Positions 12,457 through 42,449 of a stretch of 59,160 bases of DNA are shown here, in pieces. The translations under genes were made by a program, and so were the position numbers. The notes under the pieces are model-generated. The model saw only the letters and a list, made by a program, of their open reading frames with translations, searched no databases and was not told the DNA's origin. This stretch comes from Candidatus Parcubacteria bacterium. GTDB lineage: Bacteria; Patescibacteriota; Minisyncoccia; UBA6257; HR35. The stretch lies in the NCBI GenBank assembly GCA_026004535.1, contig BPJI01000001.1, positions 497,424 to 556,583 of the forward strand, written 5' to 3'. The stretch's first letter is position 1; each line of letters starts with the position of its first letter.

Positions 12457-12460
12457 TTTT

Positions 12461-14218: not shown

Positions 14219-14236
14219 TATAATTTTCTATTTTTA

Positions 14237-15163: not shown

Positions 15164-15532
15164 TTATTGAGGTGCAATTATTTTAAGATTTTTTACTTTT
15201 TTAAAGTCAGAGATATTATAAGTAACGAGTATTGAATCAGTTAATATCGTTGAAGCAGATATAACAGCATCTATTGTCTTTAAATTAAATTTTCTTCTTA
15301 ATTCTCCTGCTAATTTTGCTATTTCAAAATCTAAATTAACAATCACAAAATCTTTAATTAAATCAAAAAATATTTTCTCACTTTGACTATCCAATTTAGG
15401 ATAAGATAAAAATTCAGTTATAACTACCGTGGGCACAAAGAAAACTGATTCCTTATTTTTATTGATAAAATTAAATGTTTTTTGATCACCGTTAAAGTAA
15501 AAAATTAAAATATTTGTATCTAAAGTAAACAT
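15164..15532 (-). CDS. vapC: PIN-domain toxin (VapC-like)
   Basis: 122 aa; acidic PIN residues in context (FTLDTNILI, VVITEFLSY, TIDAVISAS, YNISDF); preceded by a small overlapping ORF. Confidence 0.8.
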   Translation of the reverse strand: MFTLDTNILIFYFNGDQKTFNFINKNKESVFFVPTVVITEFLSYPKLDSQSEKIFFDLIKDFVIVNLDFEIAKLAGELRRKFNLKTIDAVISASTILTDSILVTYNISDFKKVKNLKIIAPQ

Positions 15533-21485: not shown

Positions 21486-21519
21486 AAAAAACCTCCTCTT
21501 AAATAAGAGGAGGTTTTTT
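21486..21519. terminator. bidirectional intrinsic terminator
   Basis: AAAAAA-CCTCCTCTT-AAAT-AAGAGGAGG-TTTTTT; perfect 9-bp stem flanked by A-run and T-run between convergent genes. Confidence 0.8.
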
Positions 21520-22471
21520 AATTTCTTAATTTTGATTTAATAAAAAAAATACCGCTGATTGTAATTATCGTTACAAGCACTAAATATAAAATTAAAGCCT
21601 CCATTAAAGTAAAAGGAATACTTTTTAACCTACCCAAAATAAAAGCTAACAACCAAGATGTAATAGAAATAACTCCCATTGAGACAAAAATTTTCTCCTT
21701 ATAATTATTTAATTTTTGAAAATCAAATTCAATTAATTTAGGTGAAACAATTAAATTCATTAAAAATCCATTAATAACAATAGTCAAAACAATTATCATT
21801 TTAAACATAAACTTAACAGAATTATGATATTTATTCATATCAGAGAAATAAATAAAAACACCGGAAACAATAATTAATGCTAAAATTAACCAAATAAAAT
21901 CCGATAAATTATCTAAAATTGATTTTTCTTTATCATCAATCTTTCTATCTTTTAAAAATTTAAAGAAAAGATAATCAACCACAGAAACGATCCCTAAACC
22001 AATTCCAGCAGATAAAGCGTGAATAAAGATGCTTAATTTTTGTAACTTAATCGCTGCGTTAATTATTGTATCTTTATAAATTAAGTATGAATTAATAAAG
22101 ATCAAAAAACATAATAAAGCGGATAAAAGACACCAACTACAAAACTTTTTTAATTTAAAAAGCTGGATAAATGTTAAATAAATGGAAAAAAGAACAGCTA
22201 AAAGTGATAGATTGAAAACAAAAAACTCTAAAAAATAATTTTTAAATCTAAATATTAGAAATAATAGGTAAAAAATTAAAATAAAACCATAATAAGCAAA
22301 ACCTAAAATTGTATTTTCAATTCCTAAAAATTTAGAATATTCACTGTGAATAACTGGGTCGCATTTGGCCCTCAAGGGGCAAATCAGAGGTTTTTTACGG
22401 TATTTATATCTGTGGATATAATAAGCAATATAACAACCAGTTATAGCTGAAACTAAAATAATGAATAACAT
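21518..22471 (-). CDS. VKOR-like (vitamin K epoxide reductase family) membrane protein fused to an extra polytopic domain
   Basis: 317 aa; loop cysteines CPLRAKCDPVIHSEYSKFLGI and CxxC (CSWC) in a TM helix; ~170-aa C-terminal multi-TM extension. Confidence 0.7.
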   Translation of the reverse strand: MLFIILVSAITGCYIAYYIHRYKYRKKPLICPLRAKCDPVIHSEYSKFLGIENTILGFAYYGFILIFYLLFLIFRFKNYFLEFFVFNLSLLAVLFSIYLTFIQLFKLKKFCSWCLLSALLCFLIFINSYLIYKDTIINAAIKLQKLSIFIHALSAGIGLGIVSVVDYLFFKFLKDRKIDDKEKSILDNLSDFIWLILALIIVSGVFIYFSDMNKYHNSVKFMFKMIIVLTIVINGFLMNLIVSPKLIEFDFQKLNNYKEKIFVSMGVISITSWLLAFILGRLKSIPFTLMEALILYLVLVTIITISGIFFIKSKLRN

Positions 22472-22633
22472 ATTTTATCTTGAAAAAAATTAATTATTTT
22501 TATTTTAACATGATTTTTAATTTATAAATCAGTTATAAAATAAAATTATGACGGTTATAATTTTAATAACTTAAACTTTTTTTAAATTTTTAAGCAAACT
22601 ACGAAACTTTTAAAGCACAACGAAAATCACTCA

Positions 22634-23011
22634 TTATTTTTTAAAAATTCTTATTTTAAATTTACCTTCTCCTAAAAAGAATAAAGCTAAAGAAGCCAAA
22701 GCAAGCCCTAAATCACGAAAACCTGAAGGATTAAAACCCAAAGAAAAAAGAAAAATTGAAATAAGGTGCAAGGTAGCTAAAAGAGAAACTATTTTAATGA
22801 ACAAGCCTAAAACAAAACAAATTCCGATTAGACAATCAAAAACACCATTCATTAAGACTATCTTTTGCTTAAAAATATCATTCATATAAATAAATTTTAC
22901 TTCGGGAATTAAATCAATCCATCTTTGAGGATAAATTAACTGACTAATACCAAAATAAAGGAAAACAATTCCCAATCCAACTCGCAAAATTAATTTACCG
23001 TAGTTTTCCAT
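22634..23011 (-). CDS. DoxX-family membrane protein
   Basis: 125 aa, four TM helices; N-terminal LILRVGLGIVFLYFGISQL pattern. Confidence 0.55.
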   Translation of the reverse strand: MENYGKLILRVGLGIVFLYFGISQLIYPQRWIDLIPEVKFIYMNDIFKQKIVLMNGVFDCLIGICFVLGLFIKIVSLLATLHLISIFLFSLGFNPSGFRDLGLALASLALFFLGEGKFKIRIFKK

Positions 23012-23493
23012 TATTGTCTTAATTTTCCAATTTCAAATCGCTTTAGTGCTTCTTCTGGTTTTTCTTGTCCTCCATGTTTTCTTTCAAATACTTGAGTACC
23101 ATCTTTACCACATATTGACAAAACTTTATCTTCCCCACCCGGGTGTTTATCAATCCATTCGGTTAAATCATAAACTCTATCTCGAATGACAGTCCAGCAA
23201 CTTTCTTTAGAATTATTTTGAGATACCTCTTCTAATGTATACAGATTTTCTTGTGGCTGAGTTGAAGTTTGCTGTAATTGTTGGAAATTAATAGATTCAG
23301 TTGATGTTGGCTCAGAAATCATAAATTTTTCTAATAAATCTTCACTAACAGGTATATTTGGTACCGAAAATTGGCTAACTGCTTGATTATTGTTGGTTTG
23401 AGATTGTTTATTTGTTAATTTAAATAAAGCTAAACCTCCTATCACAATTATAAGAATAGTTATTAAGCCTATATAAACGGATTTTTTTCCCAT
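23011..23493 (-). CDS. membrane-anchored cytochrome b5-like heme-binding domain protein
   Basis: 160 aa; N-terminal TM; YTLEEVSQNNSKESCWTVIRDRVYDLTEWIDKHPGGEDKVL contains the b5 HPGG motif. Confidence 0.8.
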   Translation of the reverse strand: MGKKSVYIGLITILIIVIGGLALFKLTNKQSQTNNNQAVSQFSVPNIPVSEDLLEKFMISEPTSTESINFQQLQQTSTQPQENLYTLEEVSQNNSKESCWTVIRDRVYDLTEWIDKHPGGEDKVLSICGKDGTQVFERKHGGQEKPEEALKRFEIGKLRQ

Positions 23494-23715: not shown

Positions 23716-24030
23716 TTAATGCTTCTTTTCCCATTTTTCTGCATTTTCTAAAATATCACCCTCTTGAAATAAAATTGCTCTTAAGGCTTCTCTCCACTTA
23801 GGTAATTTTCTTGTAAGCCACTCCAAATCAATAGCAAAGTGTTCAAATTCTTCCTCTTGAGCATGTTCCATAATTGCTTTAACTTCTGGGTCTTTAGTAA
23901 CAGCAATTCTTTGTTGATACCAATTTATAGCTTCTGCCTCCTCAACCAATGAAGCAATAATCCTGGCAAAATCTCTTAATTCTGAAGATAATTCCTCTGG
24001 TGGTTCATGATATTGATCAAACCCTGCCAT
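23716..24030 (-). CDS. EncFtn-like (encapsulated-ferritin family) two-helix ferritin-like protein
   Basis: 104 aa; HEPPEEL, VEEAEAINWYQQR and HAQEEEFEHFAIDLEWL match the EncFtn E-x-x-H/E-rich di-iron pattern as I recall it; TGTATAAT -10 element about 40 nt upstream. Confidence 0.65.
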   Translation of the reverse strand: MAGFDQYHEPPEELSSELRDFARIIASLVEEAEAINWYQQRIAVTKDPEVKAIMEHAQEEEFEHFAIDLEWLTRKLPKWREALRAILFQEGDILENAEKWEKKH

Positions 24031-24392: not shown

Positions 24393-25121
24393 TTATTCTT
24401 TTTCAATTATTGCGATGTAATATGATTTTTCAGAGTCAATAAATTTCTTAATTCTCCAACCAGTATCTTTAAGAATTTCTTTCATTTCTTTTTTTGAAAC
24501 AATTAGATAATCAAACCAATCTCCAATATAATTTCTAAATCTAATCCTAATACGAAGTTGCCCAGGCATTCTCCCTCTTTTTCGATTGAATTTGTGATAT
24601 GATAGATGTGCTGGATCTTTTGTTTTGTAAGGGTCATTGCTTTCAGCAATTATCAAAGCTTTTTGAGTTGTTAATTTGGAGAGCTTCTTTAATAACTTTC
24701 TTGCTTTTTTAGGATTTCCAAATAAACCAAAATTATTACCAAACATAATTACAGTATCAAAAACAACAGGCCTTAATTTTTCAATTTTTTCAAAAGGTAA
24801 AACTTTTGCTTTCTTGATTCCTCTTCTTTTACAAATTTTTATTGCCAGAGGGGAATTATCAATAGCAAGAACATCAAAACCTCTTTTCTGCAAATAAAGC
24901 GAAACTCTTCCAGCCCCAGCACCAACATCAAGAACTTTGCCTTTTACAAATTTTATTGCTTCTTTCTCATGTTTTGGCCATTTCTCAAAATCAGCAAAAT
25001 AAACAGACGGACCGCCAGATAAATCAACGAATCCATCATCTCTTTCAATAATTTCATAAGATTCTTTACCTTGAAAAAAAGCCCATATTTCTTGGCCGTA
25101 AGCATCCTTTTTTGGTTCCAT
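24393..25121 (-). CDS. class I SAM-dependent methyltransferase
   Basis: 242 aa; motif I VLDVGAGAGRVSLYL, motif II-like FDTVIMFGN. Confidence 0.8.
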   Translation of the reverse strand: MEPKKDAYGQEIWAFFQGKESYEIIERDDGFVDLSGGPSVYFADFEKWPKHEKEAIKFVKGKVLDVGAGAGRVSLYLQKRGFDVLAIDNSPLAIKICKRRGIKKAKVLPFEKIEKLRPVVFDTVIMFGNNFGLFGNPKKARKLLKKLSKLTTQKALIIAESNDPYKTKDPAHLSYHKFNRKRGRMPGQLRIRIRFRNYIGDWFDYLIVSKKEMKEILKDTGWRIKKFIDSEKSYYIAIIEKE

Positions 25122-25373: not shown

Positions 25374-26747
25374 ATGTTATTAAATATTAAAATGGACAAA
25401 ACAATAAACAGTATTATTAAGTTAACCGAAAAAATAGCGGATGGCGAAAGTTTTACTGCTTCGAAAATTATTAATGCGATAAATTGTATAGAGAACTCAG
25501 ATAAAAATCTCAACGTGTATAAGGGAATTTTGATAGTATATTATTTTAGAAAATATAAAGATTTTCCTAAAAAGAATCTTAACAAACTTAAAACATATAG
25601 TAGTTTTGAAAAATGTCTTCATATCTTGAGAGGAAATATATTAAATCCTACTGAGATAGCCAATACATTTCTGGATATTCTTAAAATCCCAGACAGTGAT
25701 GGAACCATAAGGGATATCTTGATGGGGTGTTTTTACGGGGCACTGTGGCCTTTTATGAATAATCCTAAAAATTTTAATATAGCTATAGAGTATGGGCTAG
25801 CTTTGATCGAATCAGCTTTTTCATTAGACAATTTTAACATTCATAAAAAGATAAATATTATAAATGGAGACCAAGGAATAAAAATAATTAATATGGCTGG
25901 TAGTGGCAAAAAAGAGATTAAATTACTCAATTTAAGCTCAATGGCCGCTATTATTACAGCAGCGACCGGCAAAAAGATTAGAGAAAATATCGTGGTAGAA
26001 AAAACCACATCCAGAGCGACTTCCAGTATAACTGGATCGAGCGACATTTTTGAACTTGCCGGAGTAAATCTAAATTTGCCGATCCATAAGATGGCTGAGA
26101 TTTCGTTAACAACAAAACTTGGCATATTTGATATAAACGCGATTGTTCCCAGATTAAATCATGTGTATGATGGCCGTTTGTACAATGTGCAGGTTTTTGC
26201 TGGATTAGTAGGCGGGGCGGCTATAGTAAATCCGGTTGATGCTGATTTGATCAATTATGGTTTAACAAGGGGGTCAACGCAATTGTGTTTGGCTATTTTG
26301 AATAGGTTGTACCCCACTAAAAATATTCTTGTACTACAAGGGAAGGATCCGCATGGCATGCCAGTGATCGATCAAGTCTCAATAGCAGCCAATACCGAAG
26401 TTGCTCAAATTATTAAGAATAAGATAACTATTAGAGAGATAGCCCCGGAAGATTTTGGGTTTGATTTCATACCATTCAAGTATGTAGAGACTACACAGAA
26501 TCAAAGGGAGAATCTTAATGAATTTATTAAAATTTTGATTGGCAGGGGTGATAAAGCACTTAAGCAAACAGTAGCAATGGAAGTCGCTTTGAACCTTTTT
26601 GGATTAGAAGTGGTTGACAATTTAAAAACCGGAGCTGCGCTGGCACTAGAGACTATTAACTCCGGTCTCGGAATTAAGGTTCTTGAAGATTTGGTCGTTC
26701 ATTCTGACGGCGACAAACAAAGATTCAGTAGCCTAGCGAATATCTAA
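25374..26747 (+). CDS. divergent TrpD-like (glycosyltransferase family 3 / anthranilate phosphoribosyltransferase fold) protein
   Basis: 457 aa; NLSSMAAIITAATG, SSITGSSDIFELAGVNL, ILVLQGKD..MPVIDQVS, IAPEDFGF follow the TrpD order, but GTGGD is AGSGKK and KHGNR is VEKTTSR; alternative start at 25392. Confidence 0.6.
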   Translation: MLLNIKMDKTINSIIKLTEKIADGESFTASKIINAINCIENSDKNLNVYKGILIVYYFRKYKDFPKKNLNKLKTYSSFEKCLHILRGNILNPTEIANTFLDILKIPDSDGTIRDILMGCFYGALWPFMNNPKNFNIAIEYGLALIESAFSLDNFNIHKKINIINGDQGIKIINMAGSGKKEIKLLNLSSMAAIITAATGKKIRENIVVEKTTSRATSSITGSSDIFELAGVNLNLPIHKMAEISLTTKLGIFDINAIVPRLNHVYDGRLYNVQVFAGLVGGAAIVNPVDADLINYGLTRGSTQLCLAILNRLYPTKNILVLQGKDPHGMPVIDQVSIAANTEVAQIIKNKITIREIAPEDFGFDFIPFKYVETTQNQRENLNEFIKILIGRGDKALKQTVAMEVALNLFGLEVVDNLKTGAALALETINSGLGIKVLEDLVVHSDGDKQRFSSLANI

Positions 26748-26748
26748 T

Positions 26749-27726
26749 ATGCAAAAGAATTTAATAAATTATCTTATTCTACCAAAAGGAATACAAAGTA
26801 TTATCTTCAAATCCTATGTTTATTTTATCCCGTTCTTATATTCATTAACCATCGACTCAAACTATATTCGTAATTTTCTGCTGTTTATCGTTATTTTTAG
26901 TTTATTTGAATTTGTAATAAATCCATCTCGTTACCAGCTAAACGATATAGCAGATTACAAAGAAGACCAGCAAAGACATCACCACTGGCAGCGTCCAGTA
27001 AACGAAGCAAACAAATCTTTAATTTTAACTGTGGCATTATCAAGATTTGTGTTAGGGACTACAATTGCTTTCATACTTAATATGAAATTAGGCTACCTCG
27101 CAATACTGTTTATAGCGCTACAACTTTTTTATGACTATTTTGCTAAAAAACTCTCTGCCCTTTTGTCTATATTTACCGTTGCTATAGCGTATCCACTAAG
27201 ATCTTTAACAATATTTTATGGTTTGAGTATTAGTCTCAATAAAACAGTTCTTCTAATTTTGTTTACCCTATTTTTTTACTCAACTTATATGGTTATTCAA
27301 TGGCGGAAATATGAATCACTATTTATTGCAAAAAATAAGCTTTTACCAAAACCTCATTCTGAATTTTTCAGAAGTTCCAAAACAAACCTTCTTGTACATT
27401 CTGTTTTAATAGCGTTCTTTATCGTATTTATTCTACTAATAATTACATTAATGAAAATAGATACAGGTAAAAATATAATCTCTGGTGTATCCATGTTTCT
27501 GATAATTATACTTATGCTTTTGAATAAAGAAATTATCAGTCGTATTATTGCTCAATTTCATAATATATTTATTGCTTTTTTATTTATCGTTTTTACCTTG
27601 GATAAATTCCTGATCGGTCTTGCTACTGCTGTGATTACAATTTTTATTGTATTTTGGTATCACAAGGTTTATATAGATAAATTTGCCAGTCGTTATTTTA
27701 GTGAAGCCCACTATGAAAAAACATAA
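26749..27726 (+). CDS. UbiA-superfamily-like polytopic membrane protein (prenyl/phosphoribosyl-transferase-like)
   Basis: 325 aa, about 8 TM helices; first Asp-rich motif NDIADYKED present; second motif not evident. Confidence 0.55.
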   Translation: MQKNLINYLILPKGIQSIIFKSYVYFIPFLYSLTIDSNYIRNFLLFIVIFSLFEFVINPSRYQLNDIADYKEDQQRHHHWQRPVNEANKSLILTVALSRFVLGTTIAFILNMKLGYLAILFIALQLFYDYFAKKLSALLSIFTVAIAYPLRSLTIFYGLSISLNKTVLLILFTLFFYSTYMVIQWRKYESLFIAKNKLLPKPHSEFFRSSKTNLLVHSVLIAFFIVFILLIITLMKIDTGKNIISGVSMFLIIILMLLNKEIISRIIAQFHNIFIAFLFIVFTLDKFLIGLATAVITIFIVFWYHKVYIDKFASRYFSEAHYEKT

Positions 27727-28843
27727 AAAACTTCCTTTATTTAAGGCGCAAATTCCTAAAGAAAACCTAAATCACGCTCTGAAAGAGGCGAAGATGGATC
27801 AGAATTTTGTGCAAAATATTATTCTAAAAGAAGGCTACTCTCCCATAGGCAAATCTGTTGCCATTGGACCGCTCTCTGATGTTAGCTTTTTGAAAAATAA
27901 GTTTTCCTGTCATTATAATCTAAATAAATTTAACGAAGTTCCTAGATCAAAACAACATTTTGTAACAGGTTTCGGACCGACTAATGCTCCAACAGCAGGC
28001 ACTCTTTCAATAATTTTAAGAGCAGTATTTTTTGAGAAAAAAACAGGTATTGATTCTACAATTATTATCTCTAATTTAGGTGCATTCAACTCAAGAAATA
28101 TTGCGTTGGATAAGATCGAATACCTTACAGAAAGATTTGCCAAATTTATTCGTTCTTTAGGGTTTAAAGGAGAATTAAGAACTCATAACAACTTTAATCT
28201 ACTGGTAGCATCAAGTTTAACCTCCAAGGTGTTAACCATTAAAGATTTTCTAGAAAACGAAGAAGTAACTACAAATTTATATAAAAAATTAGGCATCCAG
28301 GGCAAGGATTTTCCTACTTTTATTGATGCCAATTTTACAGTTGCTGATATTCTCCTTCCTGCTATTTTAAAGAAGAAAGAAAGGATATTGGTTTTTGTAG
28401 GTATCGAGGAGTATTATTTTCCTAAACTAGCAAATTTAGTAATACAAAGATTTAACAGGGATTATCCGAAGCAATTCATATCAGAAAATACTTTGGTTGC
28501 GGCGGCGTTCGGTCATCTTATTGAGGGTTTAAATGGTTTTCCGAAAATGTCAAAGAGCATTCCGGAATCCTCTATAAATCTTGATGATTCTCCAGAAGAA
28601 TTAGAACAAAAAATTTTAAGGTGTGATCCAAGGGACGAGAAAATTATTCTCCAAATGATTAATTTAGTTTCTGACTGGGATTTGAAAAAAATTATGAAAG
28701 CAAACAAGGCTTTTAAAAAAGGCGGCAATGAATGGTTAAAATTCAAAAAGGATTATCTTCAATACTTTCTCAGTTTGAAAAAGTTGTGGGATAAAACAGA
28801 AAATAAAAAGTATAGGTTTAAAGTAGATTCGCTTTTTAAATAA
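27683..28843 (+). CDS. divergent TrpRS-like class I aminoacyl-tRNA-synthetase paralogue
   Basis: KMSKS retained (GFPKMSKSIPES) and colinear with TrpRS (FTVADILLPA, LVIQRFN), but PTAGT replaces TIGN/HIGH and GIEE replaces GEDQ. ATG at 27713 (MKKHKK...) is a likelier start, overlapping the previous stop. Confidence 0.65.
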   Translation: MPVVILVKPTMKKHKKLPLFKAQIPKENLNHALKEAKMDQNFVQNIILKEGYSPIGKSVAIGPLSDVSFLKNKFSCHYNLNKFNEVPRSKQHFVTGFGPTNAPTAGTLSIILRAVFFEKKTGIDSTIIISNLGAFNSRNIALDKIEYLTERFAKFIRSLGFKGELRTHNNFNLLVASSLTSKVLTIKDFLENEEVTTNLYKKLGIQGKDFPTFIDANFTVADILLPAILKKKERILVFVGIEEYYFPKLANLVIQRFNRDYPKQFISENTLVAAAFGHLIEGLNGFPKMSKSIPESSINLDDSPEELEQKILRCDPRDEKIILQMINLVSDWDLKKIMKANKAFKKGGNEWLKFKKDYLQYFLSLKKLWDKTENKKYRFKVDSLFK

Positions 28844-28847
28844 ATTT

Positions 28848-29987
28848 ATGGATGAGCATAAAACTGTTATCATTTTAGGTGGAACTGGGTTTGTGGGTAG
28901 GGCTGTAACAGAAAAATATTTAAAAAATAAATGGCGAGTTGTTATTCCAACAAGAAGTAGAAATTTAGCTGAGGCAAAAAATAAATTATTGTCGCACGGT
29001 TTTGATGAAAATTCCCTGGAAAACTTTTTATCAGCTAATCTTTTATTGTTTGCTCTCGATGTTGATTTATCTGAAAAAAAATGGTCCGAACCAGATAATT
29101 GGTCTCGATTATTGAGAGAAATAAATATACCAATTTTTTCTATATTGCGAGTTATCAATTTTGTCGGTGAAACATCAAAGTCAGCAGAGGAGATTTTGAA
29201 ATCCAACATTAATACCTTAGTGAGTATCTTCACCCTGGTTAGATATATAAAATCTCAAAATAAAAGCACTATTTTTGTAAATATGGGTTCTGTTGTAGAA
29301 AAAAGAAGTAATACAAATCTATCTCCTTATGAATATGCCAAAAAAGTTGCGTACCAAGAAATTAAGAAAAGTAACTTGTGCGATTTTCATTTTATAGCTG
29401 AGTACATCAAAGGTAGAGGTGAACAAAAGATGAAATCAGTTGCCCCGATATTATGGCAGAAACTTAAATTCTCCCACAGATGGTTTTTTGGTTTTAAAGT
29501 AAGCGTAATAGACGTAGATGATCTAGCAGAAGTTATCTATCATCTTATTGAGGAGACTAAAATTAAACAACAAAGATTTAAACCAATTGAAGTTTATGTG
29601 ACAAATGGAGAATTGACCTTTGGTGAAATTGTCAAAAATCTTCTTCCAGAAAGTAACCGCAGTATTCCTAAACAAATATTTCCAAATTGGCTCGCCTTTC
29701 TCTTCTTATATTTTTATTCGCTTATAATTCCACAAATAAAACCGAATGATCAATTCATTAGAAGATTGGCTAATTTTGCAGAAAGAAGTATAAAGAAAGA
29801 GAATAAAACAGATGGGTTCAAAACTGCTGAGGAAATAAAAAAAATGGCTTTAGATTCTAAAAAATATGAAATATTGGAAAAGGAACCAAGTTTAATTATC
29901 TCTGACAAACAATCTCCTGTAATTTATGTTTTAATAGAAAAAAATGAGATAGAGCTGAAATTAATAGTTCAAAAAGCACTTCTTTAA
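28848..29987 (+). CDS. NAD(P)-dependent SDR/epimerase-family protein
   Basis: 379 aa; Rossmann motif ILGGTGFVGRAV; YxxxK (SPYEYAKK). Confidence 0.7.
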   Translation: MDEHKTVIILGGTGFVGRAVTEKYLKNKWRVVIPTRSRNLAEAKNKLLSHGFDENSLENFLSANLLLFALDVDLSEKKWSEPDNWSRLLREINIPIFSILRVINFVGETSKSAEEILKSNINTLVSIFTLVRYIKSQNKSTIFVNMGSVVEKRSNTNLSPYEYAKKVAYQEIKKSNLCDFHFIAEYIKGRGEQKMKSVAPILWQKLKFSHRWFFGFKVSVIDVDDLAEVIYHLIEETKIKQQRFKPIEVYVTNGELTFGEIVKNLLPESNRSIPKQIFPNWLAFLFLYFYSLIIPQIKPNDQFIRRLANFAERSIKKENKTDGFKTAEEIKKMALDSKKYEILEKEPSLIISDKQSPVIYVLIEKNEIELKLIVQKALL

Positions 29988-29993
29988 TTCTAA

Positions 29994-30965
29994 TTAGTCC
30001 TCTATTTGTTTTTGGTATTCAGAGATGGGGAATGGACCGTTTTTGTTTCGTTTCATCGCAAAAAAAGCAACACGATATTTCATTTTGTATGGTATTGCAG
30101 AAAATCGGTGAGGTATTATTTCTAAAATATCCTCAAAACCGAAATATCTTACTAGTTTAAAAAGTGCCTTTTTGTTTGGGATTAAAACTAAACCGCCCTT
30201 ACTTGAAGCACCGATATTGTATCGTTCCGATATCGTTTTTGGAGGGTGTGGAATATAATTTTTAATAAACTCCAAATCTCTTTCGGTGTGAGGAGAAGGA
30301 GTAAACTGATTTTGTAACTTACTGTAATTAATTTTTGTTTTTTTTTCAAATTCTAAATAGTTTTTAATAGACAGTATTTTGTCACCCACAAATAAACCTT
30401 CAAAATCATTTTCGTCCATATCATTTAACATCCACCACGAAGGAATATCTTCACTTTGGTCAGAACTATAATGAACATGAGAATCAACTAGAATGGTTGA
30501 AGTTGTCACTTTAGAGATTCTTCTCATCACACCAATAGGATCTTCTAAATGGTAAAGTATTCCTGCAAGAATTGTGATGTCAAATTTTCCGAGATCCCTT
30601 TCATTGATTTCTTCAGCGGTGAGGTTTAAGAATTTGACGTTTTTTACCCCTAGATATTTCTTAATAGCGTTAGCTTGCTCTATATTCTTATTGTTCGAAT
30701 CAATACCTATTACTTCTTTTGGGCCATATTTACTTGCTTCAAAGGAGAATCCGCCGCAATTACAACCGACATCTAAAATTCTCAAGTTTCTGAGAGAGCC
30801 CCCGAATAATTTCAAAAGGGGTGGAAAGAAAAGATTAATTGCATCTCTCATTCTGTAAATCTCTGGTGCCGTATTAAAACCATTACCCAAATCAACGTCG
30901 TGAAAAAATGGGGCTAAGTGTTGTAATTCTTTTGGTATTTTTTGTTTTTTTATGTGTCTTTTCAT
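29994..30965 (-). CDS. class I SAM-dependent methyltransferase (CmoB/DUF1698-like architecture)
   Basis: 323 aa; ILDVGCNCGGFSFEA motif I, FDITILAGILYHLEDP; resemblance to the CmoB family is from memory only. Confidence 0.65.
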   Translation of the reverse strand: MKRHIKKQKIPKELQHLAPFFHDVDLGNGFNTAPEIYRMRDAINLFFPPLLKLFGGSLRNLRILDVGCNCGGFSFEASKYGPKEVIGIDSNNKNIEQANAIKKYLGVKNVKFLNLTAEEINERDLGKFDITILAGILYHLEDPIGVMRRISKVTTSTILVDSHVHYSSDQSEDIPSWWMLNDMDENDFEGLFVGDKILSIKNYLEFEKKTKINYSKLQNQFTPSPHTERDLEFIKNYIPHPPKTISERYNIGASSKGGLVLIPNKKALFKLVRYFGFEDILEIIPHRFSAIPYKMKYRVAFFAMKRNKNGPFPISEYQKQIED

Positions 30966-30970: not shown

Positions 30971-31011
30971 TAAAAAAGGCTGGGGCTATTTTTATTATAA
31001 TGGCCCCAGCC
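30971..31011 (-). terminator. intrinsic terminator of trpS
   Basis: On the minus strand GGCTGGGGC-16 nt-GCCCCAGCC followed by TTTTTT; the stem starts at the trpS stop codon. Confidence 0.75.
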
Positions 31012-32006
31012 TATGGACCGATTTGCATGACCCTCCTGACCTCGGCAAGAGTTTCGATGGCATTTTCTCTTGCCACCTTGGCGCCCTCTTCCAGAACGGA
31101 CTGAATATACGACGGATCCCGCGTGATCTCGGCTCTTTTGGACTGAAACTCCTCGAGGAAATTCTGAACAATACGGGTCAGAATCTGCTTGAACTGACCC
31201 ATCACTGGTTTGCCTTTCTTGTGCGCCTCGATAATGGCATCAACCTCATCGCGTTCAGATCCGGTTTTTGCCAACCCCTTGGCAATCAAGATAAGACTTT
31301 CCAGTTTCTCGTTCATCACTCCCTCGAAAGCGGTCTCAGCCGCCTTGATCTTGCTGGCAACCGTCTTGGCATCATCCGTCAAGAAGATGGCACCGCCGGG
31401 ATTGGTCTTGCTCATCTTGCCTCTCCCCCGAAGGGAAAGGATACGAAGTGACTTGACCTGTAATACCTGGGGAATTGGGAAAATCTCCCCATACCTCTTG
31501 TTGAACCTGCGGGCGAGTAGGCGTGTGACCTCCATGTGAGCGAGCTGATCTTCTCCGACCGGAACCTTTTTGGCTCTGTTGAGTAAAATGTCAGCAGCCA
31601 TCATGACCGGGTAGAGAAGTAGAAGAGCGTTTGCTGTTTCCGGCCGTGCGCTGTTCTTAAGCTTATCCTTGAGAGTTGGTACCCTCAAGAGTTCAGCCAC
31701 AGAGACAAGCCTGGCCAGAAGCGCGGTAAGCGTGGTTACCTCTCCTGCTATATCAGACTGGAGATAGATTCTTGCTTTCTGCGGATCCACTCCAAGCGCG
31801 ATATAGTCAGCTACGACTCTGTAGATGTACTGCCTTACAGTAGCCGGTTCATTGTCAGTGATCGCATGAAGATCAGCAACGAAAACCACCGGAGACACGC
31901 CCTGTGCCTGAAGTTCAATAATGGGCGCAACCGCCCCCAGGTAGTTAGCGACGGTCAAGTCGCCAGTGGGCCTGATGCCTGTCAGCAACTCAACCTTGTA
32001 CTGCAT
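31011..32006 (-). CDS. trpS: tryptophan--tRNA ligase, canonical bacterial type, on a GC-rich foreign segment
   Basis: MQYKVELLTGIRPTGDLTVANYLGA..VADLHAIT..YPVMMAADILL..VPVGEDQLAHMEVTRLLARRFN..KMSKT. Start chosen at ATG comp(32004..32006), 6 nt after AGGAGGTG; the track ORF runs to 32081. Confidence 0.9.
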   Translation of the reverse strand: MQYKVELLTGIRPTGDLTVANYLGAVAPIIELQAQGVSPVVFVADLHAITDNEPATVRQYIYRVVADYIALGVDPQKARIYLQSDIAGEVTTLTALLARLVSVAELLRVPTLKDKLKNSARPETANALLLLYPVMMAADILLNRAKKVPVGEDQLAHMEVTRLLARRFNKRYGEIFPIPQVLQVKSLRILSLRGRGKMSKTNPGGAIFLTDDAKTVASKIKAAETAFEGVMNEKLESLILIAKGLAKTGSERDEVDAIIEAHKKGKPVMGQFKQILTRIVQNFLEEFQSKRAEITRDPSYIQSVLEEGAKVARENAIETLAEVRRVMQIGP

Positions 32007-32039: not shown

Positions 32040-32068
32040 ATTATAACATTTTTTTTTATTTTTGTCAA
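32040..32068 (-). promoter_or_regulatory. consensus sigma70-type promoter of trpS
   Basis: Minus strand TTGACA (32063..32068) - 17 nt - TATAAT (32040..32045), with TG two nt upstream of the -10; about 33 nt upstream of the ATG. Confidence 0.7.
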
Positions 32069-32242: not shown

Positions 32243-33454
32243 CTATTCATATCTTAAAGCAACAATTGGGTCTAAATTGCTTGCTCTTTTTGCTGGATAA
32301 AGCCCAAAAATCAAACCAATCAACGTTGAAACAATTACTGAAATTAAAATTGCCTTTAGAGAAATATAAGTTGTAAGATTGGCAAATTTACTAACCCCAT
32401 AAGAAATTAAAATTCCCAACATAATTCCCAAAATCCCTCCAATTAAAGTAATAAAAGTTGATTCTAATAAAATTTGATTTAAGATATCTCTGTTTTTTGC
32501 TCCAACAGCTTTTCTTAGCCCTATTTCTTTTGTTCTTTCGGTAACGCTTGTTAGCATCATATTCATAATTCCTATTCCACCAACCAAAAGTGACACACCA
32601 GCAATAAAAGAAAGAAAAATTGTAAAAGTGTTGATGATTGAAGTTAGGGTGCTTAAAATATCTTCTTGAGAAAAAACAGTAAAATCGGGTTCATCAACTC
32701 GGTGCAAAATTGTAAGTCTATTTGTAATTTCTTCTCTTACTTTTTCAATATTTTCTTTAGAATCGACCTTAACCGCAATTGAATTAAAATATTCTGTTCC
32801 AGCTAATTGTTTTTGGGCAACTGTATAGGGAATCATTACAAAATCATCATAACTTACAAAACCAGTCGAACCCTTGGCCTTCAAAACTCCAATTACTCTA
32901 AATGTTAAATTTTTAATTTTAATTTTTTTACCAAGAGGATCAACATCGCCAAATAAATCTTTGGCAATTTGATTGCCCAAAATTGCAAATTTTGAATAAC
33001 TTCTTATTTGCTCATCAGTAAATAAATTTCCATTTTCTATTTCCATATTTCTGACTGTAAAAAAATCTACATCAACTCCCAAAATTGTTGTGTTTCTATT
33101 ATTCCCAGTTTCGGCAACAACCTGAAACCTTCTTTGAACCTCAGGAGAAATTGCAACAATATTGTCAATTTTTTTAATTTCTTTAACATCATCTTTTTTT
33201 AAGACCTGAGCCTCACCCCTTCCGCTTGAAATAAAACCTCTCCCTGGCTGAACAATACCAGGAAAAACAATTAAATTATTTGAACCTAAACTTTCAATGC
33301 TCTTTTGAATACTAATTTTTGAACCTTCACCCAAAGAAACCATCGAAATAACAGCAGCAATACCAATAACAATTCCCAAAATCGTAAGGCCTGTTCTTAA
33401 CTTATTACTTTTTAATGAATTAAAAGATTCTTGGATTAAATCAATTGTTTTCAT
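32243..33454 (-). CDS. MacB-type ABC transporter permease (MacB periplasmic domain + FtsX)
   Basis: 403 aa; N-terminal TM, large periplasmic domain, C-terminal FtsX-like 3-TM block ending [19 protein letters not shown]. Confidence 0.85.
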   Translation of the reverse strand: MKTIDLIQESFNSLKSNKLRTGLTILGIVIGIAAVISMVSLGEGSKISIQKSIESLGSNNLIVFPGIVQPGRGFISSGRGEAQVLKKDDVKEIKKIDNIVAISPEVQRRFQVVAETGNNRNTTILGVDVDFFTVRNMEIENGNLFTDEQIRSYSKFAILGNQIAKDLFGDVDPLGKKIKIKNLTFRVIGVLKAKGSTGFVSYDDFVMIPYTVAQKQLAGTEYFNSIAVKVDSKENIEKVREEITNRLTILHRVDEPDFTVFSQEDILSTLTSIINTFTIFLSFIAGVSLLVGGIGIMNMMLTSVTERTKEIGLRKAVGAKNRDILNQILLESTFITLIGGILGIMLGILISYGVSKFANLTTYISLKAILISVIVSTLIGLIFGLYPAKRASNLDPIVALRYE

Positions 33455-34166
33455 TATTGTGATATAAAATTTTTCTATTTTTAACTTTTTCTTCGTTTAT
33501 TATCTCACCATCTCTTATTCTAATTATTTTTTCTGCATGTTCAGCGACATATTCTTCGTGTGTGATCAAAACAATGGTTATTCCTTTTTCAAGATTCAAT
33601 TTTTGAAAAGTATGTAAAACTATTTCACCGGTTTTTGTATCCAAATTTCCAGTAGGTTCATCAGCTAAAATAATCTCTGGATCATTCATTAGTGCCCGAG
33701 CAATAGCAACTCTTTGCATCATTCCTCCTGAAAGCTGATTAGGATAGTGATAAATAAAATTTAAAGGAAAGGCGGATGCTTTTAAACATTCAATAGCTTT
33801 CTCTTTTCTTATGTTAATTGGTATTTCAGAATAAATTGAAGGCAGACTAACATTTTCTAAAACATTTTTTCTTGGAAGTAGAAAGAATGCTTGAAATACA
33901 AACCCTATTTTTTTACTTCTTAATCTTGCCAGCTCATCATCATTTAACTTAGAAATATCTTGTCCATCTAAAATATAAGTTCCACTTGTTGGTCTATCCA
34001 AAAGCCCTATAATATGCATAAGAGTTGATTTTCCTGAACCAGAAGGTCCCATAATTGAGACAAATTCACCTTTATTGATTTTTAAGTTTATGTTTTTTAA
34101 AGCAATAGTTTCAATCTCACCTGTCTTATAAATTTTGTTTATATTTTTAAGCTCAACCATTATCAT
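33441..34166 (-). CDS. ABC transporter ATP-binding protein (MacB/LolD type)
   Basis: Walker [10 protein letters not shown], signature [15 protein letters not shown], Walker [12 protein letters not shown]. Confidence 0.92.
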
Positions 34167-34171
34167 TGAAA

Positions 34172-35848
34172 TTATCTTTGAATGTTTTGAGGTCTTGACT
34201 GAGGAGCAAATTGTCTTGGATTAGGTAAAAATCTTTGAAAAAGTCCTTGTGATTGTTTATTATCAAAATTATTTTCAATTTTTCTAACAACAATAATGTC
34301 TCCTTCTTTTAAGCCTTCTATAACTTCAGTATTGTTGCTATCAGAAATACCTTTTTGAATAAATACTCTTTTTAAGGGATAAGTTAATTTAATAGGTCTG
34401 TCATGTATCTCTCTTAGATTTTCTTTATCATCAGGAACTTCAACATAATTTCTACTTTCAAAATTTTTAATTGCTGAATTTGGTATTATTAAAACATTTT
34501 CTTTTGATTGGGTGATAATTTCAACATTGGCAGTCATACCAATTTTGACTTCTGAATTATCCTCCAGACTAACCTTAACTAAATAATTTACAACTCCCTG
34601 TTCTACTTCTCCAACTGGTGAAATATAAAAAACTTTACCTTTTAATTCCAGCTCAGGTAAAGCATCAAAAGTTATAATCGCATCTTGACCAACCTTAACT
34701 TCAGCAGCATCTATCTCGTTTAAAGAAACTTCAATTGTTTTTTCATTTGAAAGAAGCTTAGCTAAAACAGAATTAGAAGATACAGAATCATTTGTTTTTA
34801 CATTCACATCTTGCATTATTCCGCTTATTGGAGCATAAATATAATAATCTTTTAAGTCATCTCTTAAATCTTCAAGTTTATTTTCTTTCTGTTTAATTGA
34901 AAGCTCCAAGGATTGAATATCATATTCTTTTTGTTTGAGTGAGTCTTGATAGGAATTTAAAGCATTAACCAAAGAAGAAAGATTGTTAAGATGGTCTGCA
35001 TATTTACTATAGACTAAATTTAGATCATTATAATGTCTATCAATAATTTCTTGTTTAGTATGGTAAGATTGTTGTAAGCTCAAATCTTCTTTTAATCTTC
35101 TTATTAAATCTAATCCTGATTTAATAAAATCTTGAGTCTGCAAAAGAAAATCATAGGAATCTTTAATTAAAGAATAATCAATATTTTGGTTATTAAATTT
35201 TGCTTCTTGGAGTCTTTGGGAAATTAATAAAAAATTTGTCTTTAAATTGTTATAGATTTTTTGAGAAACATCAGATGTAATTTTGACCCCAGGAAAGTAA
35301 TAAAGATAATAATCAAGGTTGTGTTTTAAATTATCAAGCTCTTTTTCAAAATAAACCTTTCTTATTTTTTCTAAATCATCAGGGTAACTAACAAAAATAT
35401 CATTTAAATTTTTAAGCAGGCTTTCGTAATTTTTTCTTAAATCATCGCCTCTTAAAATCCTTTGATAATCATCTTTGGTTTTTTGAAGGTTTAATTTTGA
35501 GCTTTCAATATCTAATTCTAAATCTCTGATTTGTCTTTTGATGTCTGAATCATCTAAAGCAAAAAGAAGCATACCTTTATTTACATACTCTCCTTCACCA
35601 ACATAAATATTAGAAATTTTTCCTGAATCAGAAGGTTTTATCTCAAAAGCATCAGTAGTTGTGACATAACCGGTTCCGGTTACAATTTTTTGAACTGAGC
35701 CTCTTTTAACTTGAGCTAAAATATAACCTTCGCTGACCTGATTTCTTTTAAATTTTGAATAACCAAAATAACTTGCTCCTCCTATTAAAAAAATTAATAA
35801 AAATATTATTTTCTTATTTTTCAAAAATTTTATAATCCGCTCTTTCAT
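34172..35848 (-). CDS. periplasmic adaptor (HlyD/MacA-like) with long coiled-coil insert
   Basis: 558 aa; N-terminal anchor, lipoyl/beta-barrel-like segments (GKISNIYVGEGEYVNKGMLLFALD; ISGIMQDVNVKTNDSV), long coiled coil; operon with MacB-type genes. Confidence 0.75.
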   Translation of the reverse strand: MKERIIKFLKNKKIIFLLIFLIGGASYFGYSKFKRNQVSEGYILAQVKRGSVQKIVTGTGYVTTTDAFEIKPSDSGKISNIYVGEGEYVNKGMLLFALDDSDIKRQIRDLELDIESSKLNLQKTKDDYQRILRGDDLRKNYESLLKNLNDIFVSYPDDLEKIRKVYFEKELDNLKHNLDYYLYYFPGVKITSDVSQKIYNNLKTNFLLISQRLQEAKFNNQNIDYSLIKDSYDFLLQTQDFIKSGLDLIRRLKEDLSLQQSYHTKQEIIDRHYNDLNLVYSKYADHLNNLSSLVNALNSYQDSLKQKEYDIQSLELSIKQKENKLEDLRDDLKDYYIYAPISGIMQDVNVKTNDSVSSNSVLAKLLSNEKTIEVSLNEIDAAEVKVGQDAIITFDALPELELKGKVFYISPVGEVEQGVVNYLVKVSLEDNSEVKIGMTANVEIITQSKENVLIIPNSAIKNFESRNYVEVPDDKENLREIHDRPIKLTYPLKRVFIQKGISDSNNTEVIEGLKEGDIIVVRKIENNFDNKQSQGLFQRFLPNPRQFAPQSRPQNIQR

Positions 35849-38649: not shown

Positions 38650-39837
38650 ATGTTTAAAAGTTTAGAATTTTATATTTCGTATAGATTTATAACTCACAGA
38701 ATTTTAAGAACTTTTTTTATTGTTTTAGCAATTTCAATCGGAGTTGCAGTTCAAATTTTTGTAGCTGTCATTATTGATAGTACTCAAGCCAATTTACTAA
38801 AAAGAACACTTGGATATAGCCCTCATATACTGATTGAACCATATGAAAACGAAAAAGTTGATATAAAAATAAAAAATCCAGAAATAATTTTAAACCAAAT
38901 TAAAGATAATTATCCATTAGAAAATTTTAAAAAGATAATTTATACCGTTGAAGGAGTTGTTTTAGCTTATAACTTTATCAATAAAGATGATTTAAATGTA
39001 AAATTGATCGGCTTTAAAGATGTTTTTGGTAAAGATATATATGGAATTGAAGAAAATTTACTAAAAGGCAAATCTAATTTATTAAAAAATGGAGAAGCTA
39101 TTATTGGTTATAATATTTATGAAAAACTTAATTTAGAAATTAACAATCTAATATCTGTTAAAAATAACTTAGGAAATTATAAATCGTTTAAGATTGTCGG
39201 AATCTTCAAAAGCGGAAATCAGAACTTAGACAATACTATTTTTATCAAAATTGAGGAAGCACAAGATTTTTTGGGTTTTAGGAGAAACGAATATAGCTCT
39301 ATTTTATTTCAAGTTAATAATGTTTTTGAATCTGATAAAATCAAAAAAATAATTTCAAATAATTTCAATTTTCCTTATGAATTAACTGAATGGAAAGAAT
39401 CAAACAAACAACTTCTAAATGGTTTGTCAGCACAATCTCAATCTAGTTTTTTTATTCAATTTTTTATTTTAATTTCAATTGCCGTTTCAATTTTAAGCAT
39501 TTTAAATATGAAGGTTGTTGAAAAATATAAGGAGATTGGAATTTTAAAGGCATTAGGAATGAATAATGATAAAATTGCTAAAATTTTTATTTTTATGAGT
39601 TTATTAATCGGTTTTTTGGGAGTATTCTTGGGCACCTTGTTTGCTTTCCTGCTTTTGAATATATTTATTAACATAACTAAAAGCCCAGAAGGAATTCCAT
39701 TATTTAATTTAGTAATAAAAACAAATTTCTTGATTGCTACAATTTTATTTAATTTACTTGCTGTAATTTTTGCTGGTTATATCTCTTCAAGAAAAGCGAT
39801 AAAATATGAACCAGCCAAAATCATAGTCGGTGTCTGA
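38650..39837 (+). CDS. ABC transporter permease, LolC/E-FtsX family
   Basis: 395 aa; N-terminal TM, periplasmic domain, C-terminal FtsX-type TM block (KEIGILKALGMNN). Confidence 0.8.
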   Translation: MFKSLEFYISYRFITHRILRTFFIVLAISIGVAVQIFVAVIIDSTQANLLKRTLGYSPHILIEPYENEKVDIKIKNPEIILNQIKDNYPLENFKKIIYTVEGVVLAYNFINKDDLNVKLIGFKDVFGKDIYGIEENLLKGKSNLLKNGEAIIGYNIYEKLNLEINNLISVKNNLGNYKSFKIVGIFKSGNQNLDNTIFIKIEEAQDFLGFRRNEYSSILFQVNNVFESDKIKKIISNNFNFPYELTEWKESNKQLLNGLSAQSQSSFFIQFFILISIAVSILSILNMKVVEKYKEIGILKALGMNNDKIAKIFIFMSLLIGFLGVFLGTLFAFLLLNIFINITKSPEGIPLFNLVIKTNFLIATILFNLLAVIFAGYISSRKAIKYEPAKIIVGV

Positions 39838-39857
39838 AAAAAAATATTAAATAAATT

Positions 39858-42443: not shown

Positions 42444-42449
42444 ATAGCA

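Follow-up and report, generated by a model that had tools for sequence, protein, structure and literature searches.

A TrpRS-like paralogue family and a TrpD-like protein as the core of a candidate specialised-metabolism cassette in many phyla

Why should a Candidatus Parcubacteria bacterium carry, beside a canonical gene for tryptophanyl-tRNA synthetase (TrpRS), a tight four-gene operon encoding a second, very divergent TrpRS-like protein together with proteins resembling TrpD, UbiA and a short-chain dehydrogenase/reductase (SDR)? The question is raised by a 59,160-nt stretch of contig BPJI01000001.1 (assembly GCA_026004535.1, positions 497,424 to 556,583, forward strand; hereafter the window), in which the four genes occupy positions 25374 to 29987. 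We found that the TrpRS-like protein belongs to a distinct and strongly constrained paralogue family, here called PAR, rather than being a housekeeping TrpRS. PAR and the TrpD-like protein form the conserved core of a cassette, together with a cognate aminoacyl-tRNA synthetase (aaRS) and a reductase, and often a phosphatase. The cassette appears to encode an undescribed pathway that probably joins an amino acid to a sugar-derived partner, and its product may target the neighbouring synthetase.

A first-pass annotation, made from the sequence alone, had described the four open reading frames (ORFs) as closely spaced, and direct reading of the sequence bears this out. TAA, one nt and ATG lie at the junction of the TrpD-like and UbiA-like genes, and TAA, 4 nt and ATG at that of the PAR and SDR genes. 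The PAR ATG at 27713, which is also the start used in the database protein (P0001), overlaps the end of the UbiA-like gene by 14 nt. Judging by this spacing, the four genes are probably co-transcribed. A methyltransferase gene and trpS face the operon from the minus strand. The genes are as follows.

25374 to 26747, plus strand: TrpD-like protein, 457 aa, anthranilate phosphoribosyltransferase (AnPRT) fold with a remodelled active site; the database start at 25392 gives 451 aa
26749 to 27726, plus strand: UbiA-superfamily membrane protein, 325 aa, accessory component
27713 to 28843, plus strand: PAR1, the TrpRS-like paralogue, 376 aa; an alternative TTG start at 27683 gives 386 aa
28848 to 29987, plus strand: atypical extended SDR, 379 aa, with Rossmann GGTGFVG and YxxxK
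29994 to 30965, minus strand: S-adenosylmethionine-dependent methyltransferase (TIGR04290/CmoB-like), part of the window-type cassette
31011 to 32006, minus strand: canonical TrpRS, the partner aaRS; probable ATG at 32006 (MQYKVELLTG)

The PAR family and its conserved partners

In a Pfam scan the window PAR1 matched tRNA-synt_1b (PF00579) at 35 bits. It scored 51.7 bits against the trpS model TIGR00233, below the equivalog cutoff of 176.75, and it shows 25% identity to the window's own TrpRS. The family is small: 250 relatives, down to ~40% identity, were found in a database of 5.8 billion clusters, and a PAR profile searched against 1.84 billion representatives gave 245 matches at E ≤ 1e-3 and 87 at E ≤ 1e-30. 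Alignment of 19 diverse members showed invariant TGFGPTNxPTxGTLS, SxLGAxxSR, G(I/L)EE and KMSKSI blocks, with a mean column identity of 53% across phyla. Two types were distinguished, PAR1 (TGFGPTNxPTxGT, the window's type) and PAR2 (TG(I/V/F)GLSGxPH(M/L)GT). The GxDQ of TrpRS is changed to G(I/L)EE and KMSKS is invariant. The HIGH signature had been reported as lost. The window PAR1 does have T-A-G-T at this position, but the loss is softer than that wording implies, as T-A-G-T resembles the bacterial TIGN and PAR2 keeps H-(M/L)-G-T. In the literature searched (subscription journals not covered), no TrpRS- or TyrRS-like paralogue with a TrpD-like partner is described. A 2022 review of aaRS duplications names no function for any paralogue of TrpRS or of tyrosyl-tRNA synthetase (TyrRS) (PMC9437257).

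A one-genome-per-species scan for PAR returned 80 loci. For the census, all ORFs were clustered and family hidden Markov models were then applied to 82 non-redundant loci. Association statistics were drawn from those 53 non-redundant loci (42 PAR1 and 11 PAR2) in which PAR is flanked on each side by 4 kb or more of sequence, counting genes within 8 kb. Hosts include Patescibacteria, uncultured gut Bacilli and Clostridia, Ignavibacteria, Elusimicrobia, Chloroflexi, Myxococcota and DPANN archaea. Among isolates, the cassette is found in Rhizobiales, Streptomyces, Micromonospora, Salinispora fenicalii, Kitasatospora, Nocardioides, Pilimelia, Actinoplanes and Kribbella. Complete genomes with the cassette include those of Kribbella sp. 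CA-253562 (NZ_CP192049.1) and Actinoplanes sp. CA-015351 (NZ_CP192102.1) and a Bacilli MAG (metagenome-assembled genome; OZ007038.1). The host range is patchy and rich in producers of secondary metabolites.

The TrpD-like gene is present in 52 of the 53 loci (41/42 PAR1 and 11/11 PAR2); in 32 of them, no more than 150 nt separate it from PAR. The partner synthetase follows the PAR type. TrpRS accompanies PAR1 in 42/42 loci and PAR2 in 1/11 (an archaeon), and TyrRS accompanies PAR1 in 1/42 and PAR2 in 10/11 (Fisher p = 5.6e-10, a value inflated by shared ancestry). Pairwise identities of PAR, the TrpD-like protein and the partner aaRS co-vary (r 0.83-0.88). A constrained PAR protein thus stands beside a canonical TrpRS in every well-flanked PAR1 locus, and the earlier proposal of a candidate uncharacterised pathway is strengthened by this. 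The proposal that the four operon genes form the unit is not, since the UbiA-like gene was found in 6 of the 82 loci only and the core is TrpD-like plus PAR, which may even be fused.

Single TrpD-like::PAR polypeptides occur in Rhizobiales AFS063751 (746 aa), in a Polyangia MAG and in the proteins P0111, P0363 (717 aa) and P0373 (736 aa). P0381 is a fusion of a haloacid dehalogenase-type (HAD) phosphatase domain, Hydrolase_3, with PAR, and locus L024 carries a probable HAD::TrpD-like fusion. These fusions argue that the phosphoribosyltransferase (PRT)-fold enzyme, the phosphatase and the aaRS-fold enzyme serve one substrate chain. Two longer proteins, P0395 (911 aa) and P0427 (885 aa), carry a C-terminal PAR domain behind ~570 residues that have neither a Pfam match nor similarity to the TrpD-like profile (hhalign probability 0.5% for the N-terminal region of P0395).

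A cultured example is on plasmid pBMB172 of Bacillus thuringiensis C15 (110240-116636, ~6.4 kb). It encodes PAR2 (347 aa), a TrpD-like protein (353 aa) with the same AGSGKK motif as in the window, a zinc-dependent alcohol dehydrogenase (ADH), a HAD phosphatase, a major facilitator superfamily (MFS) transporter and tyrS, and it is bounded by IS6/recombinase genes and an IS4 element. RefSeq names both PAR2 and the TrpD-like protein "hypothetical protein". It is very unlikely that a tyrS gene which lies beside an exporter on a mobilisable plasmid serves as the housekeeping copy, and we infer that it is additional to that copy.

Mosaic cassettes were also seen. In L026 and L019 a window-type TrpD-like protein (57-71% identity) and TrpRS (75-85%) are combined with a distant PAR of the gut-Bacilli/Ignavibacteria subtype (39-41%) and with an aldo-keto reductase (AKR), NTP_transf_5 and F11, which points to shuffling of modules between cassette subtypes. 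Cognate tRNA genes abut the cassette in two of the 60 loci scanned (tRNA-Trp in L029, a PAR1 locus, and tRNA-Tyr in L074). With so few, an orthogonal aaRS/tRNA pair for a non-canonical amino acid is unsupported.

Folds, motifs and accessory enzymes

The TrpD-like protein matched Pfam Glycos_transf_3 at 71 bits and the trpD model TIGR01245 at 97.4 bits, below the equivalog cutoff of 199.05, and its family profile matched the AnPRT 9ucw at 121 bits. The AlphaFold2 model (pLDDT 92.9) aligned to 1kgz, 1zyk and 9ucw in Foldseek with TMt of 0.79-0.84. The active site is remodelled. GTGGD is replaced by (A/G)SGK(K) (AGSGKK in the window), with SGK conserved across the family, and KHGNR is replaced by KTTSR (EKTTSR in the window). 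The protein keeps N-x-S-T, K, S-x3-GS-x-D and D333 (the Asp of DE), positions at which AnPRT contacts ribose-5-phosphate and metal. The anthranilate-binding Asn and Arg (P-x-R motif) are not conserved. Members of the window subtype carry an N-terminal extension of ~100 aa. No trp-operon context was found: none of the recurrent gene families in ~88 related loci belongs to trp biosynthesis, and the Pfam scan, which covered 43 of the 50 window ORFs that reach 120 aa, showed no such gene. The TrpD-like protein therefore shares with TrpD the two-domain fold (TM ~0.8) and the ribose-phosphate and metal positions and differs from it in both replaced motifs, the lost anthranilate residues, the model score (97 against a cutoff of 199) and the gene context. 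Its motifs suggest that it uses a phosphoribosyl-type substrate with a different nucleophile. Because the anthranilate-binding residues are lost, the anthranilate-derived product offered as one early reading is unlikely.

The AlphaFold2 model of the window PAR1 (pLDDT 83.6) is a full-length match to archaeal and eukaryal TrpRS (TM 0.61-0.67 to 3jxe and 3a04), so that the TrpD and TrpRS folds proposed for the two proteins are both borne out by predicted structures. In the amino acid pocket, as aligned by sequence, Asp212 is kept and the Tyr and Gln positions of archaeal-type enzymes are changed. With its KMSKS loop and a T/H-x-G-T signature, PAR most likely still forms an aminoacyl-adenylate, and PAR1 is a probable ATP-dependent, Trp-activating ligase.

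Every cassette subtype holds an NAD(P) oxidoreductase, the fold of which varies (SDR, AKR, ADH). SDR genes were counted in 27 of the 42 PAR1 loci and AKR genes in 10 further PAR1 loci; the B. thuringiensis plasmid carries a medium-chain (MDR) ADH. The window SDR matched PF01370 at 38.2 bits (gathering threshold 20.9) and gave no match to the PDB by sequence. It contains GGTGFVG and Y-E-Y-A-K, Y161 and K165 being invariant in its family A3, and profile comparison relates it to the SDR-like gene found after PAR1 in actinomycete and myxobacterial cassettes, as a homologue (hhalign probability 98.2%, E 5e-14). The methyltransferase at 29994-30965, which the first-pass annotation left out, also belongs to this cassette subtype. 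It matched Methyltransf_31 at 64 bits and TIGR04290 at 81 bits (below the cutoff), with the sugar O-methyltransferase EvdMO1 as the best PDB match (41 bits). Homologues with 38-79% identity occur in the cassettes L004-L009, L013-L016, L018, L027, L039 and L088. The methyltransferase and cassette recur together in Hyalangium, Polyangia, Rhizobiales and Chloroflexi, and the window-type pair of SDR and methyltransferase recurs in Myxococcota and Rhizobiales. HAD phosphatases are present in 22/42 PAR1 and 7/11 PAR2 loci, and a DAO-type FAD oxidoreductase in 17 loci, all actinomycete. In Micromonospora and Pilimelia a six-gene set comprises TrpD-like, PAR1, SDR, FAD oxidoreductase, trpS and HAD genes. 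Certain subtypes have components of their own: glycosyltransferases (GT4), APH kinases, radical-SAM enzymes, NTP_transf_5 next to an unknown P-loop-like protein, or ABC exporters. Some loci have ABC or MFS exporters. The recurrent accessory genes are sugar-type tailoring enzymes.

The UbiA-like protein matched PF01040 at 38.9 bits, above the gathering threshold of 34.2. The first Asp-rich motif is present (NDIADYKED) and no second one (DxxxD) is evident in the translation. The best NCBIfam match was the model of decaprenyl-phosphoribose (DPPR) synthase, NF008978, at 26.7 bits against a cutoff of 207. The sole PDB match was decaprenyl-phosphate phosphoribosyltransferase (8j8j, E 4.4e-7). The description of the four proteins as very divergent TrpD-, UbiA-, TrpRS- and SDR-like thus holds: the domains match while the trpD, trpS and DPPR-synthase equivalog cutoffs are missed widely. 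All the motifs quoted for them (AGSGKK, VEKTTSR, NDIADYKED, PTAGT, GAFN, GIEE, KMSKS, GGTGFVG and Y-E-Y-A-K) are in the translations. The six loci with the UbiA-like gene are the window, L004, L007, L010, L038 and L018. It is a lineage-specific accessory component; the window subtype holds two phosphoribosyl pyrophosphate (PRPP)-type folds, and this is not general.

Known systems offer partial parallels. The CysRS-like enzyme MshC of mycothiol synthesis activates cysteine with ATP and acylates a sugar-derived amine, GlcN-Ins, rather than tRNA (PMC9437257). PAR as proposed would likewise be a class I aaRS paralogue with ATP activation and a sugar-derived acceptor. MshC differs in its CysRS descent, in having neither a PRT-fold partner nor a dedicated cognate aaRS, and in belonging to actinobacterial primary metabolism. 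In the ascamycin (AcmF/AcmD) and SB-203208 (SbzA) clusters, an aaRS-like enzyme that loads an amino acid onto a small molecule is encoded together with an extra cognate aaRS, which supplies aminoacyl-tRNA and/or withstands the aaRS-inhibiting product (PMC12945691). These resemble the cassette in combining a non-translational aaRS-like enzyme with a cognate aaRS; however, AcmF is AlaRS-like (class II), SbzA is IleRS-like and both use aminoacyl-tRNA, whereas PAR is TrpRS/TyrRS-like and has a TrpD-fold partner.

From these data we propose the following scheme. The TrpD-fold enzyme would handle a phosphoribosyl (PRPP-type) substrate and no longer anthranilate. PAR1 would activate tryptophan with ATP, forming the aminoacyl-adenylate, and would pass Trp to a ribose-derived acceptor made by its TrpD-like partner instead of to tRNA, as MshC does with its own acceptor. 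A ribose-derived acceptor is suggested by the physical coupling of PAR to the PRT-fold enzyme and the phosphatase. The NAD(P) oxidoreductase (here the SDR) and the methyltransferase of this subtype may modify the sugar part; in other subtypes the HAD phosphatase would strip the 5-phosphate and the FAD oxidase would also tailor the sugar. The canonical TrpRS next door would be functionally tied to the pathway, most likely as a copy that the product does not inhibit and that thereby shields the producer; supply of Trp-tRNA, the task of AcmD in the ascamycin pathway, may be a further role.

The partner synthetase and alternative explanations

The window trpS encodes a bona fide TrpRS (TIGR00233, 263.5 bits against the cutoff of 176.75), and so do the partner genes elsewhere encode genuine synthetases (TIGR00233 258-266 bits; PRK12556 517 against 479; TIGR00234 267 against 114). 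The gene had been called foreign on first inspection, and its composition agrees: GC is 0.51 and GC at third codon positions (GC3) is 0.58, compared with GC3 of 0.24-0.33 in the five remaining genes of the cassette. L007, L008, L010 and L026 show this contrast too. When the trpS copies of the window, of these four loci and of L090 are taken together, GC3 is 0.52-0.60 against 0.11-0.33 in their neighbours. Third-position identity is 0.68-0.71 between trpS copies and 0.53-0.59 between neighbouring genes. The clade of the window TrpRS is widespread in Parcubacteria at 75-91% identity, with the cassette (e.g., Falkowbacteria GW2011_GWC2_38_22) and without it within 8 kb (L090 and L091). In L090, where a recombinase gene is close by, GC3 is 0.56 in trpS and 0.11-0.17 in its neighbours. 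L019, a contig of 61% GC with another cassette subtype, holds a relative (75-79% identical) that is natively rich in GC. By its composition, the window trpS appears to be a xenologue moving among AT-rich genomes, and the pattern suggests recent horizontal spread of a GC-rich TrpRS allele. The spread of a drug-insensitive allele would be one explanation.

Producers of aaRS inhibitors generally carry a second, insensitive synthetase (PMC7916415, PMC9437257). The partner aaRS resembles such immunity enzymes (the indolmycin-resistant TrpRS1, AgnB2, MupM and albomycin SerRS2) and the auxiliary TrpRS II in being a divergent cognate aaRS, presumably a second one, encoded with or near a pathway. It differs in that its resistance is putative and that, in Patescibacteria, it is possibly a replacement and not a duplication. 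The partner TrpRS of the gut-Bacilli/Ignavibacteria subtype is closest to TrpRS II of D. radiodurans (384 bits), and in L022 a pair of TrpRS genes was seen. The suggestion that the adjacent trpS is a target-copy resistance gene gains support from the presence of a cognate aaRS across phyla, the switch to TyrRS and the plasmid with its MFS transporter.

Several further observations concern the synthetase genes. P0353 (424 aa), a TrpRS of the window clade with 74% identity to the window TrpRS, carries MerR/HTH_17 DNA-binding domains in the precomputed Pfam annotation. Such a fusion of regulator and synthetase would be unusual. L005 also has a MerR gene close to its cassette. In three uncultured gut Bacilli/Firmicutes MAGs (L072, L074 and L085), two tandem full-length TyrRS genes are located 3-4.6 kb downstream of the PAR2 cassette, and in L074 they are directly followed by the tRNA-Tyr gene. 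In the Berkelbacteria-labelled L010, a TyrRS with KMSSS for KMSKS is encoded at 6388-7575, just upstream of the PAR1 cassette. L010 and L025 are the only PAR1 loci that hold both TrpRS and TyrRS.

On a modest balance of probability, the cassette is a mobile specialised-metabolism unit of many phyla in which PAR ligates Trp to a PRPP-derived acceptor and TrpRS serves immunity or supply. A bolder extension is tentative and, in our judgement, rather doubtful as a whole. According to it, the cassettes would make a pan-phylum group of aminoacyl-(aza)sugar or aminoacyl-ribosyl inhibitors, aimed at class Ic synthetases, TrpRS in the case of PAR1 cassettes and TyrRS in that of PAR2 cassettes, with SB-219383 as a possible member, ultra-small Patescibacteria and DPANN archaea among the producers and the foreign trpS, with or without the cassette, as a resistance allele. 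A bifunctional ligase of PRT and aaRS folds would assemble them, and it would be the first non-translational paralogue of TrpRS or TyrRS. SB-219383 is a tyrosine "dipeptide" from Micromonospora (sp. NCIMB 40684) with a bridged N,O-acetal sugar-like unit, and it inhibits bacterial TyrRS (PMC9054317, PMC3940080, PMC13271063). It shows that molecules of this kind exist. Like the expected product, it consists of an amino acid and a sugar-like unit and acts on the class Ic synthetase of that amino acid, and the cassette is found in Micromonospora. It is Tyr-based, however, and the Micromonospora cassettes found here are of the Trp type; we regard it as a lead and not as evidence.

A number of points weigh against the proposed ligase-and-immunity cassette. 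As the window-clade trpS also occurs without the cassette (L090 and L091), it may be the sole TrpRS of these small genomes and not an extra copy. The loci are phylogenetically non-independent, so Fisher's p overstates the evidence. The taxon labels of some MAG contigs are doubtful, those on low-GC contigs with near-identical cassettes (Thermotogota, Pseudomonadota) being probably binning errors. The HAD phosphatase of other cassettes is missing from the window type, with which no exporter is conserved either; the MacB/ABC/HlyD set at 32243-35848 is non-syntenic in its relatives. Retention of KMSKS does not exclude an aminoacyl-tRNA-dependent mechanism.

Such a mechanism is the strongest competitor, though we think it an unlikely one. 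PAR would be an aminoacyl-tRNA-dependent transferase like AcmF or SbzA that moves Trp from Trp-tRNA onto what the TrpD-like enzyme makes, and the neighbouring TrpRS would be mainly a dedicated supplier of Trp-tRNA. Those characterised enzymes use aminoacyl-tRNA from a cluster or housekeeping aaRS (PMC12945691). The strict pairing of PAR1 with TrpRS and of PAR2 with TyrRS is exactly what supply predicts, and the two loci with an abutting cognate tRNA gene (L029 and L074) fit as well. PAR aligns with archaeal TrpRS from end to end, so that its C-terminal helical domain is covered too, and W341, K345, Y348 and W359 are invariant. Yet the invariant KMSKS loop and the PKMSKSIPES block of PAR argue for ATP chemistry. 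Moreover, cognate aminoacyl-tRNA is present in every cell, and there is little reason for a plasmid or a ~0.6 Mb genome to keep a copy that serves supply only. In 58 of the 60 loci scanned, tRNA genes are absent.

The UbiA-like gene invites a different explanation, that the Patescibacteria subtype serves the cell's own envelope. A polyprenyl-phosphate-linked pentose would be made from PRPP by the UbiA-like and TrpD-like proteins, epimerised or reduced by the SDR and aminoacylated by PAR1. The DPPR route runs through a phosphatase and DprE1/DprE2, and the actinomycete subtype (PRT-like protein, HAD phosphatase, FAD oxidoreductase and SDR) resembles that logic. The only PDB relative of the UbiA-like protein is an enzyme of this route, and a polyprenyl synthase gene is located 10 kb away (40558-41586). 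We consider this improbable. The second Asp-rich motif is not evident, and even cassettes closely related to that of the window (L008, L009, L015 and L088) have no UbiA-like gene. Given its presence in only 6 of the 82 loci, a prenylated or lipid-linked product, as first put forward, cannot be the general chemistry. An envelope role also leaves the obligatory cognate aaRS, the TyrRS switch and the MFS-bearing plasmid cassette unexplained.

Could the cassette instead be a resistance or detoxification island, combining an insensitive TrpRS or TyrRS with enzymes that modify an incoming aaRS inhibitor (by ribosylation, reduction or methylation) and sometimes with an efflux pump? The mobilisable plasmid, on which the IS-flanked cassette includes tyrS and an MFS pump, would suit this, as would the spread of the GC-rich trpS among AT-rich Parcubacteria even where there is no cassette (L090). 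Four to six conserved anabolic-type enzymes, PRT::ligase fusions and an amino-acid-activating enzyme are atypical of detoxification, however. No resistance family was matched in NCBIfam, and PADLOC assigned no defence family to the core proteins. We judge such an island very improbable.

Harder still to credit is that PAR has no catalysis of its own and regulates the TrpD-like enzyme as a subunit that senses Trp or Tyr. The model would be HisZ, a regulatory, non-catalytic HisRS paralogue whose partner HisG is ATP phosphoribosyltransferase. The parallel is striking, as in both cases an aaRS paralogue is partnered with a PRPP-dependent transferase fold; here that fold belongs to the same amino acid's pathway, and the two genes are adjacent and sometimes fused. 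Unlike HisZ, PAR has invariant catalytic motifs, and its cassette includes a cognate aaRS besides tailoring enzymes. The anthranilate residues are lost from the TrpD-like protein, no trp biosynthesis genes are present in the loci examined, and HAD::PAR fusions exist. PAR2 pairs with TyrRS, yet tyrosine synthesis uses no PRT. Finally, that PAR is simply the fast-evolving housekeeping TrpRS of its clade in an accidental gene order, the objection foreseen at the outset, is refuted despite the tRNA-synt_1b domain and KMSKS, since a canonical TrpRS stands beside PAR1 in all 42 loci at 25% identity in the window, only 245 members were found among 1.84 billion representatives, the family occurs in Streptomyces and on a Bacillus plasmid, and PAR is fused to TrpD-like and HAD domains.

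If the proposed ligase function is correct, PAR would fill a gap among aaRS paralogues with a function. With the TrpD-like protein it would form the second pairing of an aaRS fold with a PRT fold after HisZ/HisG, this time apparently catalytic. If the immunity reading is true, the cassette would be a compact 5-6-gene route to new TrpRS/TyrRS inhibitors. To our knowledge there are few natural-product leads against these enzymes (indolmycin, chuangxinmycin and SB-219383). The strict pairing with a cognate synthetase gene makes the cassette easy to mine, and the cultured carriers (Streptomyces, Micromonospora, Salinispora, Kitasatospora and the B. thuringiensis plasmid) allow direct testing. In Patescibacteria, where genomes of ~0.6 Mb rarely encode specialised metabolism, it would be an exception, and it would offer an explanation for the horizontal replacement of an essential synthetase gene.

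Signals and other genes in the window

Two candidate signals were found at the cassette.

30020 to 30045, plus strand: terminator-like hairpin, nine-pair stem followed by a T-rich tail (a pattern match only)
32040 to 32068, minus strand: predicted sigma-70-type promoter for trpS and the methyltransferase, matching the consensus at 12/12 positions

The hairpin starts 33 nt past the SDR stop. The promoter consists of TTGACA, a 17-nt spacer and TATAAT with an upstream TG (extended type), ~34 nt upstream of the ATG at 32006. The longest mechanically called trpS ORF runs to 32081 (356 aa) and includes the promoter; the true start is therefore probably the ATG at 32006, the called ORF being ~25 codons too long. 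No Rfam match at gathering thresholds was obtained in the window, hence no T-box or other leader for trpS, and no tRNA genes were found there. PADLOC gave no defence-model match for the TrpD-like, UbiA-like, PAR1, SDR or TrpRS proteins. An anti-phage defence system was dropped as a candidate, the only PADLOC hits being generic methyltransferase matches for two methyltransferases.

Upstream of the operon, a second methyltransferase gene (24393-25121) and a gene for an EncFtn-like encapsulated ferritin (23716-24030, minus strand, 106 bits) have homologues in none of the related loci; no encapsulin shell gene is among the annotated neighbours of the latter. Two MacB-type ABC efflux sets are present (32243-35848, minus strand; 38650-40553, plus strand). 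The first (HlyD, ABC ATPase and MacB permease) lies directly upstream of trpS in the same direction and was rejected as the pathway exporter, as synteny is lacking in relatives. A VKOR, DoxX and cytochrome b5 gene cluster is located at 21518-23493, a lamin-tail-domain protein is encoded at 16034-18331, and a minus-strand group at 9266-15532 includes a type III-like restriction-modification pair (ResIII helicase/restriction subunit, N6/N4 DNA methylase) along with RadC and a PIN-domain protein. Further downstream comes a carotenoid-type set at 40558-44843, with genes for a polyprenyl synthase, a phytoene/squalene synthase, a desaturase of amine-oxidase type and a second UbiA prenyltransferase. 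After it lie genes for a photolyase (44834-46132) and the UV endonuclease UvdE (46120-47049). This stretch is a light-protection module, which is notable for a small Patescibacteria genome.

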